IMG/VR virus record: IMGVR_UViG_3300002461_000323
Coordinates: 1-64,000 of that record
Length of the DNA stretch: 64,000 bases
Direction: 5' to 3' (one strand)
Source: a virus
Positions 3,297 to 28,298 of the stretch are shown here, piece after piece (position 1 is the stretch's first letter; every line of letters starts with the position of its first letter). The notes under the pieces are model-generated. The model worked only from the letters and a program-made list of their open reading frames with translations, ran no database searches and was not told where the DNA came from. The position numbers and the translations under genes are program-made.

Positions 3297-4256
3297 ATGG
3301 AAGTAGACGTTCAAGTTCAAGGCAAAGCCGCGTTCGCCAAAGTTCTCTCGCACTCGATCAATCCGGACGGCCACGAACTGCTGACCTTCCAGTTGAAATA
3401 TCCGAGGATCATCCACTCGGAGTTCATGACTCACCGGGAGAAGAGTCGGAGTGCAAGCTCCAGCCGCGCCATCCCGGTTGACCGCATGCTCGCGGAAGTC
3501 CGATGCGATCCGGCGATGCCGGTCTCCTGGGGTAAGAACCAGTCGGGCATGCAGGCGGGTGAGGAGATCAGCACCGAGGTTGCCCTCCCAGACCACTTGG
3601 AAGCCTCGTTTGCACGGTACCTGAAGTACGAGATCGGAGCCAAGTACCGGATAGAGCAGACGACGCGTGTCACGTACATGCCTCCAGAGTCGTTCTGGCG
3701 TTTCAGCGCCTGGGTGGCTGCCGGGCTGTCGAACGCGTATTCGGATGCGGGCTACCACAAGCAGATCGCCAATCGGTTGACCGAGCCCTTCCAGTACATT
3801 TCGGTGGTCACGACCTCCACCGGTGCAGAGTTGAAGCACTTCTACGGCCTGCGTGATCACCACATGGCCGATCCGACGATCGAAGACCTGGCGAAGGCCA
3901 TGCGTGCAGCCCAAGCCCTGAGCATCCCTCGGCCATTGAATTGGGGCGAGTGGCACTTGCCGTACGCTACCGAAGACCTGGATGCGTACACGCAGATCGG
4001 CAAGGTCATGGTCTCGACCGCCCGGTGCGCTCGCGTGAGCTACAACCGGCACGACGGCGAGCCCGCGAGCGTGAACGCCGACTTCGACCTCCACAACCGT
4101 CTGGTGAAGTCCGAGCCCCAGCACGCCAGCCCGGCAGAACATCCGGCTATCGCCCTGCGCGGCCGGTACGCGAACTTCGAAGGCTTCTGCTCCTACCGGT
4201 GGCAGTTGGAGCACGGGGTGTTTTTCAACCAAGTGAATGGAGTCAACCATGAGTGA
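3297..4256 (+). CDS. thyX: flavin-dependent thymidylate synthase (ThyX-like)
   Basis: EFMTHREKSRSASSSRAIP (THRx7S motif), QIANRLTEPF, ARCARVSY, HASPAEH; GAGGT RBS. Confidence 0.8.
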   Translation: MEVDVQVQGKAAFAKVLSHSINPDGHELLTFQLKYPRIIHSEFMTHREKSRSASSSRAIPVDRMLAEVRCDPAMPVSWGKNQSGMQAGEEISTEVALPDHLEASFARYLKYEIGAKYRIEQTTRVTYMPPESFWRFSAWVAAGLSNAYSDAGYHKQIANRLTEPFQYISVVTTSTGAELKHFYGLRDHHMADPTIEDLAKAMRAAQALSIPRPLNWGEWHLPYATEDLDAYTQIGKVMVSTARCARVSYNRHDGEPASVNADFDLHNRLVKSEPQHASPAEHPAIALRGRYANFEGFCSYRWQLEHGVFFNQVNGVNHE

Positions 4257-4833
4257 ACTGATCCAGAAAATCCAGATGGCCCAACGCGATGCCGCCGAGC
4301 AGGTGGTGATCGACGACCTGCGTGCCAAGGGCCTGCTCCCGGGTGAGCCTGCGCCCGTCGAGGTCCAGAACGTGATCAACCGAGAGCCCGAAGTCGGCAC
4401 CACCGGCCAGACGATCGATCCGCAGGGTGTTGACCACCCCAAGCACTACAACGTGCACCCCTCGGGCATCGAAGTCATCGAGATCGTCCGGCACATGAGC
4501 TTCAACGTCGGCAGCGCGTTCAAGTACATGGCCCGCCTGGGCGAGAAGGTCGAGCCCGGTCTGACGGCCAAGGAGTCGAAGATCAAGGACCTGAAGAAGG
4601 TCGTCTGGTACCTGGCCGACGAGATCGCGAACTTCAAGAGCGGTACCCAGATGGCGGTCAAGCCACGGAACAAGCTGACGACGTTCATGGCGACCGAGAA
4701 CGACTTCCTGACCCAGCAGTTCTACGGCGCGATTTTGGGCCATGCCCAGGACGGCGACATGGACTCCCTCGACTATGCGCGCTCCTGTGCCAACTCCAAA
4801 ATCGAAGAAGTCTCGGCCAGCACCGACGACTGA
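4249..4833 (+). CDS. DUF3310-family protein (putative nucleotide kinase)
   Basis: VDHPKHY..SGIEVIEIV...F..G.AFKY..R...K...DLKKVVWYL signature. Confidence 0.75.
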   Translation: MSELIQKIQMAQRDAAEQVVIDDLRAKGLLPGEPAPVEVQNVINREPEVGTTGQTIDPQGVDHPKHYNVHPSGIEVIEIVRHMSFNVGSAFKYMARLGEKVEPGLTAKESKIKDLKKVVWYLADEIANFKSGTQMAVKPRNKLTTFMATENDFLTQQFYGAILGHAQDGDMDSLDYARSCANSKIEEVSASTDD

Positions 4834-4990
4834 GCAATTGATCGACCGGCTGTGGGAGCAACGACTCACGGCCGGGGATCGGCAACTACTGGTCGAACTC
4901 AAAGACCAGGTGGATGAAGGGCAGTCTCTGCGCCCAACCCAAGAGCGTGACCTGCAGGCGCTCGCAAACGAGTACTCCGTGGCAGCTTGA
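4775..4990 (+). CDS. hypothetical protein
   Basis: Short ORF overlapping the DUF3310 3' end; start uncertain. Confidence 0.35.
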   Translation: MRAPVPTPKSKKSRPAPTTEQLIDRLWEQRLTAGDRQLLVELKDQVDEGQSLRPTQERDLQALANEYSVAA

Positions 4991-5015
4991 CAAACTGACC
5001 GACCGGGGTTAAAAT
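4987..5015 (+). promoter_or_regulatory. sigma70-type early promoter
   Basis: TTGACA-17-TAAAAT followed by a leader with GCAATGGAGTGCA. Confidence 0.85.
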
Positions 5016-5045
5016 AGAGGCTCAACATCAGCAATGGAGTGCACG

Positions 5046-5267
5046 ATGCGAAAGTACAGTCCCAAGGACTTCCAGTTCCTTCCCAAGCCGAGGATCACCA
5101 GAGTGGTCAAGCGCTACGGCACAGTCGTTTACACCTGGCTCTGCCAGTGCGACAGCGGCAGCCGTGGGTACGGGACTACCCCAGAACACGCGTACGCCAA
5201 GTGGCTTCGGTCCTGGCAGCGGCGCAAGGCCTGGTACGCCCGCCCCCACGGCTGGAGCACACCATGA
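5046..5267 (+). CDS. hypothetical protein
   Basis: First ORF after the promoter; GGAG RBS. Confidence 0.6.
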   Translation: MRKYSPKDFQFLPKPRITRVVKRYGTVVYTWLCQCDSGSRGYGTTPEHAYAKWLRSWQRRKAWYARPHGWSTP

Positions 5268-6478
5268 GCTACACCCCCGATTTCGAGCGCGTGCCCTTCT
5301 ACCGGGCTGCCGGCGTCGAGTACACGTACGTGCACCCCCGCGAGTTCAAAATCCCGTACCGCCAGCGCATGGAGAAGATGGCTCTCACGTACATGCAGAC
5401 CGCTCGGGACATGCAGAAAGTTCACACTGCCTCGTACGGTAGGACTTACGATCCCGCCTTTACTGACGGGTACGAAGACGCGATGGAGATCGTGCACCGT
5501 GGCTTGTTCCACAAGGACCCGGGGTGCGTAGAGTACAGTACGCCAGTTTGCGCTGACTGGGACGAACTTCGCATGCAGTTCGACTACGGTCTCGCAGTCG
5601 CTGAAGCCCACGATCTGCGTTTGCAGACAGAGAACGTGTGCTCGGGCATGGGCCACGTGAACATCGGAGTCACCCCCCAGGAAGCCGGGAGAGTGCTGTT
5701 CGACGTCCAGGAGCGTCCGTACCTGGCCCTCGCCTTCTGCCGCCCTCCCGAACTCTGCACGTGCCCACCGTCGATCACGCAGTCCGAGTCCTACCGTGAT
5801 CGCGGGTACAACCCGAGCATCCGCCCGAAGGAGAGCGAGAAGTACCTGGACATCAGTTATCAGCGGTCTGAGAGCCGGGACTTCGGCGACCGCATCGAGT
5901 TTCGGATGTTCAGCAGCCCAGAAGACTGGGAGGAGTCGGCTGGTCACGTGGCGCTTGCTCAGCGGTACACGCAGTTCGCGAGTAGACGCCGCGAGGGCAG
6001 AGCGGTGTCTCACTCAGACTTTGTCGAGCAGATAACCAAGCGCTTCTACTACGTCAAGGACTGCATCGCCGAGTTCAAGCTGTTCGTCGAGGAAATGCGC
6101 TTGCCCTGGTCGTACTACGGCCGGTATGTGCCGTGGCTGAAGCTCAACCACGCGAAAATGTACGACGAACTGGACACGGACCTCAGTTACCAGCGGTCTA
6201 CCGATTTCACCTTCTCTTTGAGGCAAGTACACCATGCAGTCAAGCTCGCCAGTCAAAACGCACAAAGTCGTGGACCTGAGGACGTCGGAGTCCCGGATGG
6301 AGGGATCGTTGAGTCAGTGCATGTCCTCAGCGGACACGTGGAACAAGGGGTACCGGCCTTTCAGGTTCCAAGTTCAACGACTGCCTCCACATCCCCCCAA
6401 GTTCTCAGCAGGATCACCCGCCGCACGCCCACCCAGTACATCAGGCACATCAATCGTGAAGGGTGGCACACCTTATAA
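5264..6478 (+). CDS. putative amidoligase (COOH-NH2 ligase, glutamine-synthetase-like fold)
   Basis: Ordered motifs GVEY, DPGCVEYSTP, CSGMGHVNIG, RIEFR; GGAG RBS before ATG 5264. Confidence 0.6.
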   Translation: MSYTPDFERVPFYRAAGVEYTYVHPREFKIPYRQRMEKMALTYMQTARDMQKVHTASYGRTYDPAFTDGYEDAMEIVHRGLFHKDPGCVEYSTPVCADWDELRMQFDYGLAVAEAHDLRLQTENVCSGMGHVNIGVTPQEAGRVLFDVQERPYLALAFCRPPELCTCPPSITQSESYRDRGYNPSIRPKESEKYLDISYQRSESRDFGDRIEFRMFSSPEDWEESAGHVALAQRYTQFASRRREGRAVSHSDFVEQITKRFYYVKDCIAEFKLFVEEMRLPWSYYGRYVPWLKLNHAKMYDELDTDLSYQRSTDFTFSLRQVHHAVKLASQNAQSRGPEDVGVPDGGIVESVHVLSGHVEQGVPAFQVPSSTTASTSPQVLSRITRRTPTQYIRHINREGWHTL

Positions 6479-19984: not shown

Positions 19985-20012
19985 TTGACAAACTGCCCGA
20001 CTGAGTTATAAT
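19985..20012 (+). promoter_or_regulatory. sigma70-type promoter of the polymerase operon
   Basis: TTGACA-16-TATAAT. Confidence 0.85.
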
Positions 20013-20061: not shown

Positions 20062-20481
20062 ATGATGGACACGAAAGAACGATTGGTTTACCTGCTGGCT
20101 GACCTGCTCGACCAGAACATTTATCTGGTGGCTGGTGAGTATCGGGCGCACACCGATCACAAGTTTGACCTGGGCGGCAAGTGGGTGCTCCCGAGCGCGG
20201 TTACCGTGTGCGTGGACGAGTGCACCGACAAGCTGGTGACCGCGTTCATGAAAATCCGCAGGAATCTGTGGGCGTACGTGGTGATCACCGAGACCGGCAA
20301 GTGGCTTCTGTTCTTCGACAACGACCGTGTTAAGATCAGGCCCGGTGGCGAGAAGGAGTTCGGCAAGGGCAATGGCATGGGCACGCTCAAGCGCCTCAAG
20401 CCCTCGATCACTGGCGCTGTGTCCTTCGCTGAAGGCCAGTGGCGGACAACCAATCCGGACGTGCTCATCGGGGACCTCTAA
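20062..20481 (+). CDS. hypothetical protein
   Basis: 139 aa; AAGGA RBS. Confidence 0.65.
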   Translation: MMDTKERLVYLLADLLDQNIYLVAGEYRAHTDHKFDLGGKWVLPSAVTVCVDECTDKLVTAFMKIRRNLWAYVVITETGKWLLFFDNDRVKIRPGGEKEFGKGNGMGTLKRLKPSITGAVSFAEGQWRTTNPDVLIGDL

Positions 20482-23400
20482 GTGCTTCTGATTCTCAGCA
20501 AAGACAAACCGATCGACGTCATCCGGGCTCTCCAGCCCGTGTTGGTGGGACTCACAGACAAGGATTACAGGGTCGTACAAGGCCCTGTTTTCACGTTCGA
20601 CGGAGCTACGGCGATCCTCGGCCTGGGAACTACGGTGCTGGAGGCCCTGCAGTCTGCGGGAGCGGTGCCGAAGAACCGGACGGTCACGAGTCTCCGCCGT
20701 CAGGTGGTCCAGTTCATGGGCCGACCGACGATGATCACCTACAGCACGGGTATCGCCGAGGTCGATTACCAGCAGTACGTGGACTTGCTGACCGACGTGA
20801 ATCTGGCTGTGCGGCTGGCGAAGACCGGCACAACCACCCCGAAGTACGGCGACTATCAGTACGTGCCGGACTTCAAGCAGATGATCGCCGAGATCAAGGC
20901 GAAGCTCGATGCCGACCCTCAGTGCATGGTCGATACCTCGTTCGACACCGAGACCCTGGGCCTCGATCGGTTTCACAAAGACGGGTACCTGATTGCTCTC
21001 CAGTTCTCTCACCAGCCCGGGACCGCCCGGGTGGTCGCCTTCCCCAGCCAGCAGGCTTCGCGCAATTGGTTGCACGAGCACGACAACCAGATGGACCTCC
21101 ACTGGCTGTTGAACTGCCCACGCATTCGAATCTGTGCGGCCAACGGAAAGTACGATCTGGAGTGGCTGTACGAGCAAGCGGGCATCACGTGTACTAACTT
21201 CCGATTCGACACCACTCTCGTCGGCAGCCTGCTGGATGAGAACCGGTCCAACGGCCTGGACGTCCACGCCAAGGTCTACGTGCCGGACCTCGGTGGCTAC
21301 TCCGACGAGTTCGACAAGGCGGCAGACAAGAGCCGGATGGACTTGGAGTACGCGAAGGACCCCGAGAAGTTCCTGCTGTACTCGGGCGGCGATGCGGATG
21401 CGACGTTGCAGGTGAAGAACGCTCAGAAGGAGGCGCTGCTTCAAGACCCCGCACTCACCCGGTTCTACGTGAACCTGCTGCACCCGGCAGCCCGAGCGTT
21501 CGAGCAGGTGGAGCGCGGCGGCGTGCTCTTGGACATGAACGCGTACACCGAGCTTGAGTCAGACCTCCGCAAGGAAATGACGACGCTCGTGAAAGAGGCG
21601 AAGAAGCACATCGGCGGTCTGTTGGTCGCCAAGCACCAAGACCTGGACAAGGTTGAGGGTCTGAACATCACCAAGGCCAGCCTGCTGATCGATGTGCTGT
21701 TCAGCCCCCAGGGCATGAACCTGAAGCCGAATATGATGACGGCAGGTGGGGAGAAGAAGGCCCCGCAGCCGAGCACGGCGATGGACCACCTGCAGCAGTT
21801 CGCTGACCATCCCGAGGCCGGTCCGTTCATCAAGCTGCTTGGCGACTACGGGAGCGCGAGCAAGATGCTCAGCACGTACGTCACGGGCTTCAAGAAGCAC
21901 ATTCGCTCGGACGGCCGGTACCACCCCTCGTACTTCCTGTTCGCGGGCAACAAGGAAGACGGCGACGGCGGCACGAACACCGGCAGACCGTCGGTACGTG
22001 ATCCGGCGTTCCAGTGCATGGTCGGTGAGACCGTGGTGACCACCAGCGCCGGTCCTCGCACCTTGCTGTCGGTAGTCAGGGGCTACGAGCGCGGAGAGCG
22101 CTTGCGCGTGCTCACGCACACCGGACGGTGGAAGCCGGTCGCCGGGGTCTACCGGAACGGCGTGAAGGAAGTGTTTAGCGTGTCGTCTGGAAGTGGTATA
22201 ATGGTGAAAGCCACCGCGAACCACCCAGTACTGACTGCCAGGGGTTGGGTGCGGACCGACGAACTGAAGATCGGAGATACCTGCTATGCCGCCACCGAAG
22301 CAGCACGACTACCACGGGACGCCGACCTATCACAGTTGGGTGGCGATGAAGAACCGCTGCAACAGCCCCACCAGCAAAGACTGGCCGCGATACGGTGGGC
22401 GGGGAATTACGGTGTGCCCAGCTTGGCAGAGTTTTCTCGGCTTCTTGAACTCCATGGGGCCGAAACCGGCAGCGGGATGGAGCATCGAGCGCGAGGACGT
22501 GAACGGCAACTACGAGCCGGGCAACTGCATGTGGGCGAAGCCCAAGCAGCAGGCATCGAACAGGACGAACACCAAGCTGCTCACCTGGGAGGGCCAGACG
22601 AAGACCGAGGCCCAGTGGGCGGAGGATGCGGGGATCAGCCGGGGACGCCTCCACTACAGACTGTCCATTGGTTTGCCGATGGGCCAGGCTTTGATGAAGA
22701 CCAAGCGCCCGACCGGAGTACCTTCCAAGAAGACCTGATCGTCAGCATCCGCAGCGCCGGGTACGCCGAGACCTTCGACCTGACGATTCAGGACAGCCAC
22801 TCGTTCGTGGCCAACGGGCTGGTCGTGCACAACACGATCCCCAAGCACAACAAGTGGGCGAAGGCGATCCGCCGCTGCTACCCGGCACCCGAAGGCTACC
22901 TGATCCTGGAGACCGACTACTCGCAGGGCGAACTCCGGGTGGTCGCATGCGTAGCCAACGAGGCGACGATGATCGCGGCGTACGCGGCAGGCATGGACTT
23001 GCACGTGGTGACCGGTGGCTCGATCGGAGGGTACACGTACGAGGAAATGCAAGGCCTGAAGGTCAGCAACCCCGACCTGTTCGACCAGCTTCGCCAGCAG
23101 GCCAAGGCAGGCAACTTCGGCCTGTTGTACGGCATGGGTGTTGACGGGTTCATCGAGTACGCACGGGGCAACTACGGGGTGACACTCAGCCACGCCCAGG
23201 CCGAGGAAATCCGGTCGAACTTCTTCAACACCTACCCCGGGCTGGTCGCCTACCACGAGGCCTACAAGGCGTATGCCCACAAGCATGGGTACGTGCGGTC
23301 GCCGTTGGGCCGAGTCCGCCACCTGCCGCTGATCAACAGCAGCCGCAAGGACGTCCGTGCCTCGTACGAGCGCAAGTCGATCAACAGCCCGATCCAAGGC

Positions 23401-23670
23401 GCGTTGTCCGACATGATGATCTGGTCGGTCGCCGAAGAGAACGCCATGGGCTGGCACCTGGATGCCCCGTGCTTCGGCACGGTTCACGACGCGAGCTACC
23501 GGTACATCCCAGAGGACAACTACGAGTTCTACGCCAAGCGGACGGTCGAGGTCATGGAGGGGCTCCCGTTAGAGAAAGTAGGCTGGAGCCCTCAACTCAA
23601 ATTCATTGCAGACGCGAAAGTCGGTAGGAACATGGCCGACTTGGTTGCACTTGGAAAGTTCAAGCCATGA
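20482..23670 (+). CDS. polA: family A DNA polymerase with 3'-5' exonuclease domain, intein-containing
   Basis: ExoI SFDTET, ExoII NGKYD, ExoIII YSGGD; motif A DYSQGELR, motif [15 protein letters not shown] (Phe at the E. coli 762 position), motif C VHD. Confidence 0.93.
22015..22833 (+). mobile_element. intein in DNA polymerase (273 aa)
   Basis: Starts with Cys (CMVGETVV), block [11 protein letters not shown], ends [20 protein letters not shown] followed by Thr; removal restores [12 protein letters not shown]|TIP. Confidence 0.92.
22286..22738 (+). CDS. HNH-like endonuclease (YGGRGI family) encoded in the +1 frame inside the intein
   Basis: [11 protein letters not shown]...[12 protein letters not shown]...MG..P...[19 protein letters not shown]...Q..N plus C-terminal HTH-like segment; own GGAG RBS; paralog at 27888. 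Confidence 0.85.
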   Translation: MPPPKQHDYHGTPTYHSWVAMKNRCNSPTSKDWPRYGGRGITVCPAWQSFLGFLNSMGPKPAAGWSIEREDVNGNYEPGNCMWAKPKQQASNRTNTKLLTWEGQTKTEAQWAEDAGISRGRLHYRLSIGLPMGQALMKTKRPTGVPSKKT

Positions 23671-24032
23671 AGGGCATTCAATCCATGTCCCTGGCTGAGA
23701 AGATCAGGGCTAAGACGGTGGTCAACTCTGAGACCGGATGCTGGGAGTCCACGTACAAGCCTCTGAGAGACGGCTACTGTACTATCAGGCACAGGTCTGA
23801 CCACAAAGAGCTAGGCCATCGGGCTTCTTATCGCACTTTCGTCGGCCCTATTCCAGAAGGCTTGTCCGTTCTTCACACGTGCGACAACCGCAAGTGCTGG
23901 AATCCAGAGCATCTGTTTTCGGGCACGTACTCGGACAACTCCAAAGACGCGGTGTCCAAGGGCAGGCAGAAGAACTTGTTTCCGTCTGGTGACGATCACC
24001 CTAAGAGGAAAGCCAAGCTCGTACCCGCATGA
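23667..24032 (+). CDS. HNH homing endonuclease
   Basis: CWE...GY...[35 protein letters not shown]; AT-richer codon usage. Confidence 0.85.
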
Positions 24033-24052: not shown

Positions 24053-24082
24053 TTGACAAATGGCTCGGCCTTGGGTTAAAAT
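24053..24082 (+). promoter_or_regulatory. sigma70-type promoter
   Basis: TTGACA-18-TAAAAT. Confidence 0.7.
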
Positions 24083-27887: not shown

Positions 27888-28298
27888 ATGGCTCGCGTGA
27901 ACCCTCCACACCCGTTGTACAACGTCTGGATGGCGATGACCAGACGGTGCCGCAACACCCAGTGCCAAGAGTACCCACGCTACGGTGGCCGTGGCATCAA
28001 GGTCTGCGAACGCTGGCTGGAGTTCAAGAACTTCGTTGAGGACATGGGACCCAAGCCCGATGAGCTTCAGCGTTGGACGGTTGAACGGGAAGACGTAGAC
28101 GGAGACTACGAACCCGGCAACTGCAAGTGGGCCACCTACAAAGAGCAGAACAGCAACCGCCGCGATAACCAGTACGTGCTGGTTCAAGGCCAGCGGGTGG
28201 CGGTCACCGAAGGCTCTCGACTGCTCGGCATTCCCCGGGCGTCTTTCCAACGCTACGTCAAAGCCCAGAAACAGATTCAAGGAGTTCAGTATGTCTAA
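27888..28298 (+). CDS. free-standing HNH-like endonuclease (YGGRGI family)
   Basis: LYNVWMAMTRRC...YGGRGIKVCERW..F.NF..DMG...VEREDVDGDYEPGNCKWAT..EQ..N. Confidence 0.85.
   Translation: MARVNPPHPLYNVWMAMTRRCRNTQCQEYPRYGGRGIKVCERWLEFKNFVEDMGPKPDELQRWTVEREDVDGDYEPGNCKWATYKEQNSNRRDNQYVLVQGQRVAVTEGSRLLGIPRASFQRYVKAQKQIQGVQYV

Follow-up and report, generated by a model that had tools for sequence, protein, structure and literature searches.

A nuclease-like gene one base out of frame within a putative mobile intein of a phage family-A DNA polymerase

How can a single stretch of phage DNA serve both as the middle of an intein and, one base out of frame, as a gene for a nuclease-like protein? The question is raised by the family-A DNA polymerase (PolA) gene in the DNA analysed here, a window of 64,000 nucleotides from the complete 106-kb phage record IMGVR_UViG_3300002461_000323 of IMG/VR. 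The PolA open reading frame (ORF; positions 20482-23670; it, its parts, the promoter at 19985 and the genes at 23667 and 27888 described below lie on the plus strand) contains a class-1 intein with no stop codon, and a second ORF in the +1 frame overlaps the middle of this intein. The explanation that we prefer, with a probability of roughly 0.8, is that the intein is mobile and that the loop in which inteins normally hold an in-frame endonuclease contains instead a homing-endonuclease gene of the free-standing type, shifted by one base from the intein frame.

The PolA ORF encodes 1062 amino acid residues and has Pfam matches to DNA_pol_A, to a 3'-5' exonuclease domain and to Intein_splicing. 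Its N-terminal extein of 511 residues (20482..22014) matches DNA_pol_A_exo1 and DNA_pol_A, and its C-terminal extein of 278 residues (22834..23670) begins with the Thr at position +1. Between them lie the 273 codons of the intein (22015-22833), inserted into a conserved motif that intein-less relatives read uninterrupted as DPAFQ|TIPKH (the bar marks the insertion point). The first residue of the intein is Cys (Cys1, 22015-22017, the N-terminal nucleophile), and its last two residues, His-Asn, are followed by Thr. Cys1 is invariant in 36 aligned sequences, as are the other class-1 residues T67, H70, D255, H262, H272 and N273. The N-terminal splicing part (IntN; residues 1-100, 22015..22314) includes block B in the form T67-x-N69-H70 and matches Intein_splicing and PT-HINT in Pfam, and the C-terminal splicing part (IntC; residues 227-273, 22693..22833) includes the invariant D255, H262, H272 and N273. 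The match of the intein to Intein_splicing (E = 3e-12) is above the cutoff of the model. In an AlphaFold2 (AF2) model of the intein, both parts are beta-rich, with predicted local distance difference test scores (pLDDT) above 90 except at residues 91-100 (90-97 in IntC), and they are predicted to form the HINT fold together. Residues 102-226 (22318..22692), the frame-0 read-through of the overlapping ORF, have a pLDDT of 29-41 and appear in the model as a disordered linker. The conserved catalytic residues and the placement of the intein in a core motif of a replicative polymerase lead us to infer that the intein splices itself.

The overlapping ORF (22286-22738) consists of 150 codons in the +1 frame of intein codons 92-241. 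Its ATG is composed of the last two bases of an intein Tyr codon (TAT) and the following G, and its TGA (22736-22738) sits just 5' of the IntC splicing block. A Shine-Dalgarno-like GGAGA (22273..22277, with GGAG at 22273-22276), made by the intein Gly-Asp codons GGA GAT, lies 9 nt 5' of the ATG. The product matches the PHROG family phrog_3377 ('HNH endonuclease') over nearly its full length (E = 1e-44). A free-standing paralog of 136 amino acid residues is found at 27888-28298 (44% identity, E = 1e-36; match to phrog_3377, E = 8e-43), where no other plus-strand frame is open across the gene, and a third copy lies at genome positions 75526-75912.

The same layout was found in related phages. 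A search with the intein region recovered about 40 PolA protein clusters that align to the frame-0 read-through itself (24-73% identity), and in about 22 other metagenomic loci (13 from IMG/VR and about nine from further metagenomes), with G+C contents from 30 to 62%, the intein frame is open and the nuclease-like gene lies in the +1 frame. The +1-frame relatives are 57-83% identical and keep the same phase. In most of these loci the start ATG falls within the intein codons ...GD.CY|A, with a GGRGA from the Gly-Asp codons (GGR GAT) 8-9 bases 5' of it; among the loci of group 1 that use this start, the Gly codon, GGA or GGG, is present 8-9 nt 5' of the ATG in 12 of 12. The inteins of group 2 are longer (about 340 codons) and their nuclease-like proteins bear an extra Cys-rich segment at the N-terminus, with the phase unchanged. 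The layout is old and stable rather than transitional. The phages with this extein are related to Stenotrophomonas phage DLP5, whose intein-less PolA was the sole match in a megablast search against phage records, and the inteins recovered in a scan of genome contigs were all distant ones from other genes, without any relative of this element among them.

Selection on the two frames was compared in several ways. Codon-position entropy in ten group-1 loci showed that variation is highest at intein position 3 within the splicing parts and that this maximum shifts in the overlap to intein position 1, which is position 3 of the nuclease-like gene, and the mean pairwise identity was 62% for the nuclease-like protein versus 32.5% for the frame-0 read-through. 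In a comparison with the close relative L139 (819 nt without gaps, 107 differences), omega (dN/dS) was 0.08 for IntN and 0.17 for IntC, and within the overlap it was 1.29 in frame 0 and 0.35 in the +1 frame, values which in overlapping frames are biased estimates. The results support purifying selection on the protein of the +1 frame only in the overlap. The frame-0 linker did not differ from stop-free synonymous recodings in hydropathy, hydrophobic fraction or its most hydrophobic nine-residue window (mean z about 0), and the constraint seen on the intein frame in this region appears to be stop avoidance only. To count the stops expected in the intein frame, the nuclease-like protein was held fixed and its codons were redrawn from the PolA codon usage of the same phage. 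For the window, 3.4 stops were expected and none was observed (probability of none, 0.03); for the relatives, 4-18 were expected (P <= 0.011, and < 0.001 in most). The intein frame was stop-free in all 14 loci tested, and the third frame contained 4-17 stops.

The +1 protein belongs to a family (phrog_3377/374) of about 110,000 clusters at 50% identity, whose members (among them P0121-P0270) often hold 2-8 tandem modules per protein. Since its match to phrog_3377 starts at profile position 6, the N-terminus of the ORF is the N-terminus of the family itself. The AF2 model of the protein (pLDDT 91.7) has a strand at residues 66-69, a loop, a second strand at 81-84 and a helix at 86-91. Structural alignment with VIA-align gave the HNH restriction enzyme PacI as the best match of residues 4-96 (Z = 6.5; root-mean-square deviation, 2.8 Å; 79 residues), and residues 97-150 are modelled as a helix-turn-helix resembling those of I-TevI and MerR-type proteins. 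Residues conserved in the family are W18, R24, C25, Y36, G37, G40, W47, R69, Y76, N80, C81, W83, Q89 and N92. PacI is without the catalytic histidine and cuts DNA with a tyrosine of its omega loop instead (PMC5714182). The near-invariant Y76 lies in the loop that corresponds to this omega loop, and we regard it as a candidate equivalent of the catalytic tyrosine, with N80 and N92 also conserved. By this analogy, it is plausible that the +1 protein is a nuclease.

The distribution of the element points to mobility. Among 66 related PolA C-exteins, the PAFQ|T site is empty in 48 and holds the element in 13. On a tree of these 66 sequences, whose support values come from the Shimodaira-Hasegawa-like approximate likelihood ratio test (SH-aLRT) only and in which many forks are open, the 13 carriers do not group together; 11 changes are needed to explain them, no fewer than with shuffled labels (mean 12.2). 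In 43 of 45 pairs, conservation is higher for the nuclease-like protein than for the polymerase C-extein, and its identities show no correlation with those of the C-extein (r = 0.21), which indicates that the element is younger than the divergence of its hosts. The scatter on the tree, together with conservation above that of the polymerase, argues for horizontal spread. Both the scatter and the youth of the element also suggest, indirectly, homing by cleavage of the element-free allele.

Several points weigh against the preferred explanation, in addition to the bias of the omega values and the open forks of the tree. The +1 protein has no Pfam match at E up to 0.1, including to Endonuclease_7, and no NCBIfam match, and the family profile found nothing among all PDB sequences at E up to 10. 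A Foldseek search of the PDB with the model of the protein found nothing at E up to 0.001 (the top entry was I-HmuI, E = 0.6), and the fold match of the model to HNH enzymes is middling. No histidine is conserved among 37 family members, and an Arg (R69) occupies the expected place in the motif. The word nuclease is used here because of the PHROG label, the analogy with PacI and the mobility pattern. The Gly-Asp codons that make the Shine-Dalgarno-like motif are also present in the nuclease-free inteins L017 and L149; therefore, the motif is not specific to nuclease-bearing inteins and gives no sign of selection for a Shine-Dalgarno sequence. In addition, splicing across a loop of 125 residues is assumed because PolA is taken as essential.

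The lack of a conserved histidine also speaks for the alternative that survives best, in which the +1 protein would be a DNA-binding protein without nuclease activity (a degenerate His-Me finger serving as a regulator or helper) and the intein would spread otherwise or with a nuclease acting in trans. This alternative agrees with the frequent presence of 2-8 tandem modules and extra helix-turn-helix domains in family members, which some sources name XRE-type regulators, with the known inactivity of groups of His-Me fingers in which His and Tyr are both missing (PMC5714182), and with the presence of other nuclease genes in the genome, such as an HNH_3 gene at 23667-24032. However, PacI, the best fold match, cleaves by the omega-loop tyrosine without histidine (PMC5714182), and the family has the near-invariant Y76 in that loop as well as N80 and N92, although the residue-level equivalence of Y76 is a candidate only. 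The scattered distribution of the element and its youth relative to the exteins, moreover, call for a linked homing activity. We consider that a protein without nuclease activity is unlikely, and return to the nested homing-endonuclease gene as the preferred explanation.

The expression of such a gene was considered from the signals in the window. A sigma-70-type consensus promoter, TTGACA-16 nt-TATAAT (19985..20012; 12 of 12 matches), lies upstream of the PolA operon. In a promoter scan this was the only promoter-like site before 24053, and none was found inside the intein; therefore, internal initiation on the PolA mRNA is the probable route by which the +1 gene is translated. Among the sequencing runs listed for the window, none is of RNA. 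That one mRNA carries both frames and that there is no internal promoter could also be reconciled with programmed ribosomal frameshifting from the intein frame, by which the nuclease would be made as a fusion without an independent start. This alternative is highly improbable, since a stop of the +1 frame lies 1-17 codons 5' of the start in every locus (six codons in the window), the ATG and the GGRGA 8-9 nt upstream of it are conserved, the family profile starts at the N-terminus of the ORF itself, and no slippery site was noted. It is scarcely credible that the layout is a sequencing or assembly artefact hiding an in-frame nuclease, or that the +1 ORF is a decaying pseudogene, for although the window is a single metagenomic assembly and nuclease-deleted derivatives exist, more than 20 independent contigs across the G+C range given above keep the same phase with the +1 ORF intact in all of them, its omega is 0.35 and its position pattern is of the coding type, and contigs of this phage from an independent 2024 drinking-water study span 21800-23000 with zero gaps and three substitutions, all outside the intein, so that compensating indels are excluded.

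The initial annotation of this locus, made from the sequence alone, fared well in these analyses. Its description of the +1 gene with GGAG, ATG and TGA was accurate in every detail, and its views that the intein is one stop-free frame with intact splicing blocks, that the middle of the intein frame is a non-domain linker, that the +1 frame holds a gene with its own start and that a free-standing paralog lies at 27888 agree with the results above. The computational checks that it had proposed came out in its favour: the profile (hidden Markov model) searches of both frames, the per-frame selection analysis, a survey of homologous inteins and a search for indels, made here in independent assemblies. 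The mechanism that it put forward, with the off-frame part spliced out as a linker and the nuclease expressed independently, is thus supported by comparison. It had also expected that annotators would miss such genes, and the roughly 40 PolA clusters indeed have only polymerase and intein domains recorded.

In the preferred explanation, a nested homing-endonuclease gene in a mobile intein, ribosomes reading in frame 0 would produce a PolA precursor whose disordered loop of about 125 residues is enclosed by the folded HINT halves (residues 1-100 and 227-273), and excision of the intein would restore DPAFQ-TIPKH. Other ribosomes would initiate at the internal GGAG and ATG of the same mRNA and produce the protein of 150 amino acid residues, with its His-Me-finger-like core and C-terminal helix-turn-helix. 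During co-infection, this protein may cut or nick intein-less PolA alleles near the insertion site, and repair would then copy the intein and the gene into the cut alleles. As to the origin, a mini-intein was probably invaded by a free-standing member of this family, which is abundant in phages. Deletions with a length that is a multiple of three could then give mini-inteins again, and frame-breaking events could give split inteins.

The states found at the PAFQ|T site are empty, nuclease-bearing, nuclease-deleted (mini-intein) and split. Loss is seen in L152 (1201-1680), which equals L144 (1201-2016) minus 336 nt of the nuclease-like gene, with ACGGG at both edges of the deletion and two mismatches in 480 nt; the two inteins are from different samples. 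From this comparison, L152 is a recent microhomology-mediated loss of the nuclease-like gene in which both frames have been preserved. In L021 just the first 33 and the last 43 residues of a group-2 nuclease-like protein are retained, and L020 and L149 are plain mini-inteins. True split inteins are present at the same site in L023 and L024/L025, where IntN is followed by a stop codon and IntC carries a Met of its own in another frame. The PolA gene of the window, a single ORF of 1062 codons, is not fractured, and a broken host gene was seen only in L023, L024/L025 and the upstream intein of L010.

A bolder proposal is that the out-of-frame layout is a stable, selected design for this His-less PacI-like family, which would never be fused in frame to an intein, would take its ribosome-binding site and start from conserved intein codons, and would have colonised at least two PolA insertions, with overprinted inteins as the direct source of natural split inteins. 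We think that this is possible but rather doubtful. Intein_splicing was found in none of the 120 best longer proteins with the nuclease domain, which is weak evidence against the existence of in-frame fusions. If the proposal is true, the PAFQ|T site is a natural series of empty, nuclease-bearing, nuclease-deleted and split states.

Several further observations were made on these polymerases and on the nuclease-like family. Just before the intein of the window (21985-22014), the N-extein departs from the TGRLS(A/C)(K/R)DPAFQ of nearly all relatives; the comparison therefore indicates a Leu-to-Pro change in this very conserved polymerase motif. A second intein site lies nine residues upstream (TGR|...HN|TSxKDPAxQ) in L010, L017, L023, L074, L103, L136 and L148, and two inteins are hence nearly adjacent in some polymerases. 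At L010 (2000-2650) the upstream one is split, with a stop after IntN and IntC starting from its own Met. In the PolA gene of L016 (region 3524-5542), motif B (NFGL...YGMG) holds a second insertion, about 395 codons long and free of stops, with a +1-frame ORF of 342 amino acid residues from the same nuclease-like family (3930-4958; phrog_374, E = 1e-23; phrog_3377, E = 5e-22). This insertion has a TPNH block and ends in ...VLVSN|C, and Pfam gives no intein match for it. Two predicted proteins contain the nuclease-like domain in frame. In P0272 (274 amino acid residues, from a 2-kb contig of the Joint Genome Institute (JGI)), an N-extein ending in ...APAFQ continues in frame into the nuclease-like domain and then into an IntC-like sequence, with almost no IntN left; the protein may come from a defective allele or from a chimeric assembly. 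In P0363 (299 amino acid residues), the domain follows, in frame, a sliding-clamp-like N-terminus (PF00712) and precedes a DNA methylase C-terminus (PF01555). This protein may correspond to the ShiLan-type insertion described below in an in-frame version, or it may be a fused gene call.

Downstream of PolA in the window, the free-standing HNH_3 endonuclease gene (23667-24032; Pfam E = 7e-10) has an overlap of 4 nt with the PolA stop codon. It also matches zf-His_Me_endon below the cut-off of that model, and it is a second homing-type gene attached to PolA, unrelated to the intein nuclease. Perfect or near-perfect sigma-70 consensus promoters at 19985-20012 and 24053-24082 bracket a unit that consists of an ORF at 20062, PolA and the HNH_3 gene at 23667.

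Genes such as the +1 gene are overlooked by gene callers and domain databases, and the nuclease-like family has no Pfam or NCBIfam model despite its roughly 110,000 clusters. The locus supports the idea that inteins gain endonucleases through invasion by free-standing genes, and because one site shows empty, invaded, nuclease-deleted and split states, the origin of mini-inteins and split inteins becomes testable there. The predicted disordered loop of 125 residues further gives a measure of the unstructured sequence that natural inteins seem able to accommodate, a point relevant to intein engineering.

Among known systems, the closest are inteins of actinobacteriophages with the homing endonuclease in a separate frame, reported by Gosselin, Arsenault and Gogarten (bioRxiv 10.1101/2025.01.02.630785), in which the out-of-frame enzyme is endonuclease VII-like and lies in 'frame 3', and for which an origin by invasion of free-standing genes was proposed. 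As in the window, those inteins have a splicing domain that shares the frame of the extein and an endonuclease region whose read-through is unstructured; their endonuclease ORF lies on the same strand in another frame between the splicing blocks, its product has relatives among free-standing phage genes, and there are signs of ongoing transfer. They differ from the window in having an endonuclease VII-like enzyme in frame 3 in actinophages, with the start signal undiscussed, whereas the window has a His-less PacI-like family in the +1 frame in PolA and, unlike that description, a start codon and a Shine-Dalgarno-like motif built from conserved intein codons. Because the +1 protein has no Endonuclease_7 match and belongs to phrog_3377/374, the architecture is the same and the nuclease family is different. 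A cyanobacterial dnaX intein is likewise reported to encode an out-of-frame homing endonuclease and to have a sporadic distribution (bioRxiv 10.64898/2026.09.14.751524); sporadic distribution is shared with the window, whereas the host is cellular and the extein is DnaX. The initial annotation had presented the layout as a third, new architecture, and this novelty has been superseded by these two preprints.

The other comparisons concern fractured genes, ShiLan and PacI. In fractured genes, as described by Dassa et al. 2009 (PMC2677866), split inteins flank a free-standing endonuclease gene within an essential phage gene. The window resembles them in having an endonuclease gene of the free-standing type between IntN and IntC parts, and its relatives L023 and L024/L025 are truly split; it differs from that description in that the host gene is one ORF, the intein is contiguous and would splice in cis, the nuclease-like gene overlaps the intein, and the protein is not Vsr-like. 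The suggestion of the initial annotation that the layout is an intermediate towards split inteins is plausible in view of the split versions at the same site, although the direction of change is not demonstrated by them; its transitional character did not hold, the layout being old and stable. In the ShiLan element (Arsenault et al. 2025, PMC11855218), a hidden HNH endonuclease lies out of frame in a phage methylase gene. Both there and in the window, the endonuclease ORF is overprinted on an insertion that is stop-free in the host frame, and both show homing behaviour, that of the window being suggested by its distribution. ShiLan has no splicing domain, keeps the read-through in the mature protein and uses a GTG start without a detectable ribosome-binding site (PMC11855218), whereas in the window the intein would remove the read-through and a Shine-Dalgarno-like motif precedes an ATG. 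PacI shares with the window protein the missing catalytic histidine and is the best structural match of residues 4-96, whereas the window protein has no detectable sequence similarity to PacI and adds a C-terminal helix-turn-helix. To our knowledge, the zinc-binding cysteine motifs of PacI are also missing from the nuclease-like family of the window. The architecture described here is therefore already known from the preprints of 2025-26, and the PolA intein of the window differs in its nuclease family, in its extein, in having start signals made from intein codons, and in an unusually complete series of states at one site.

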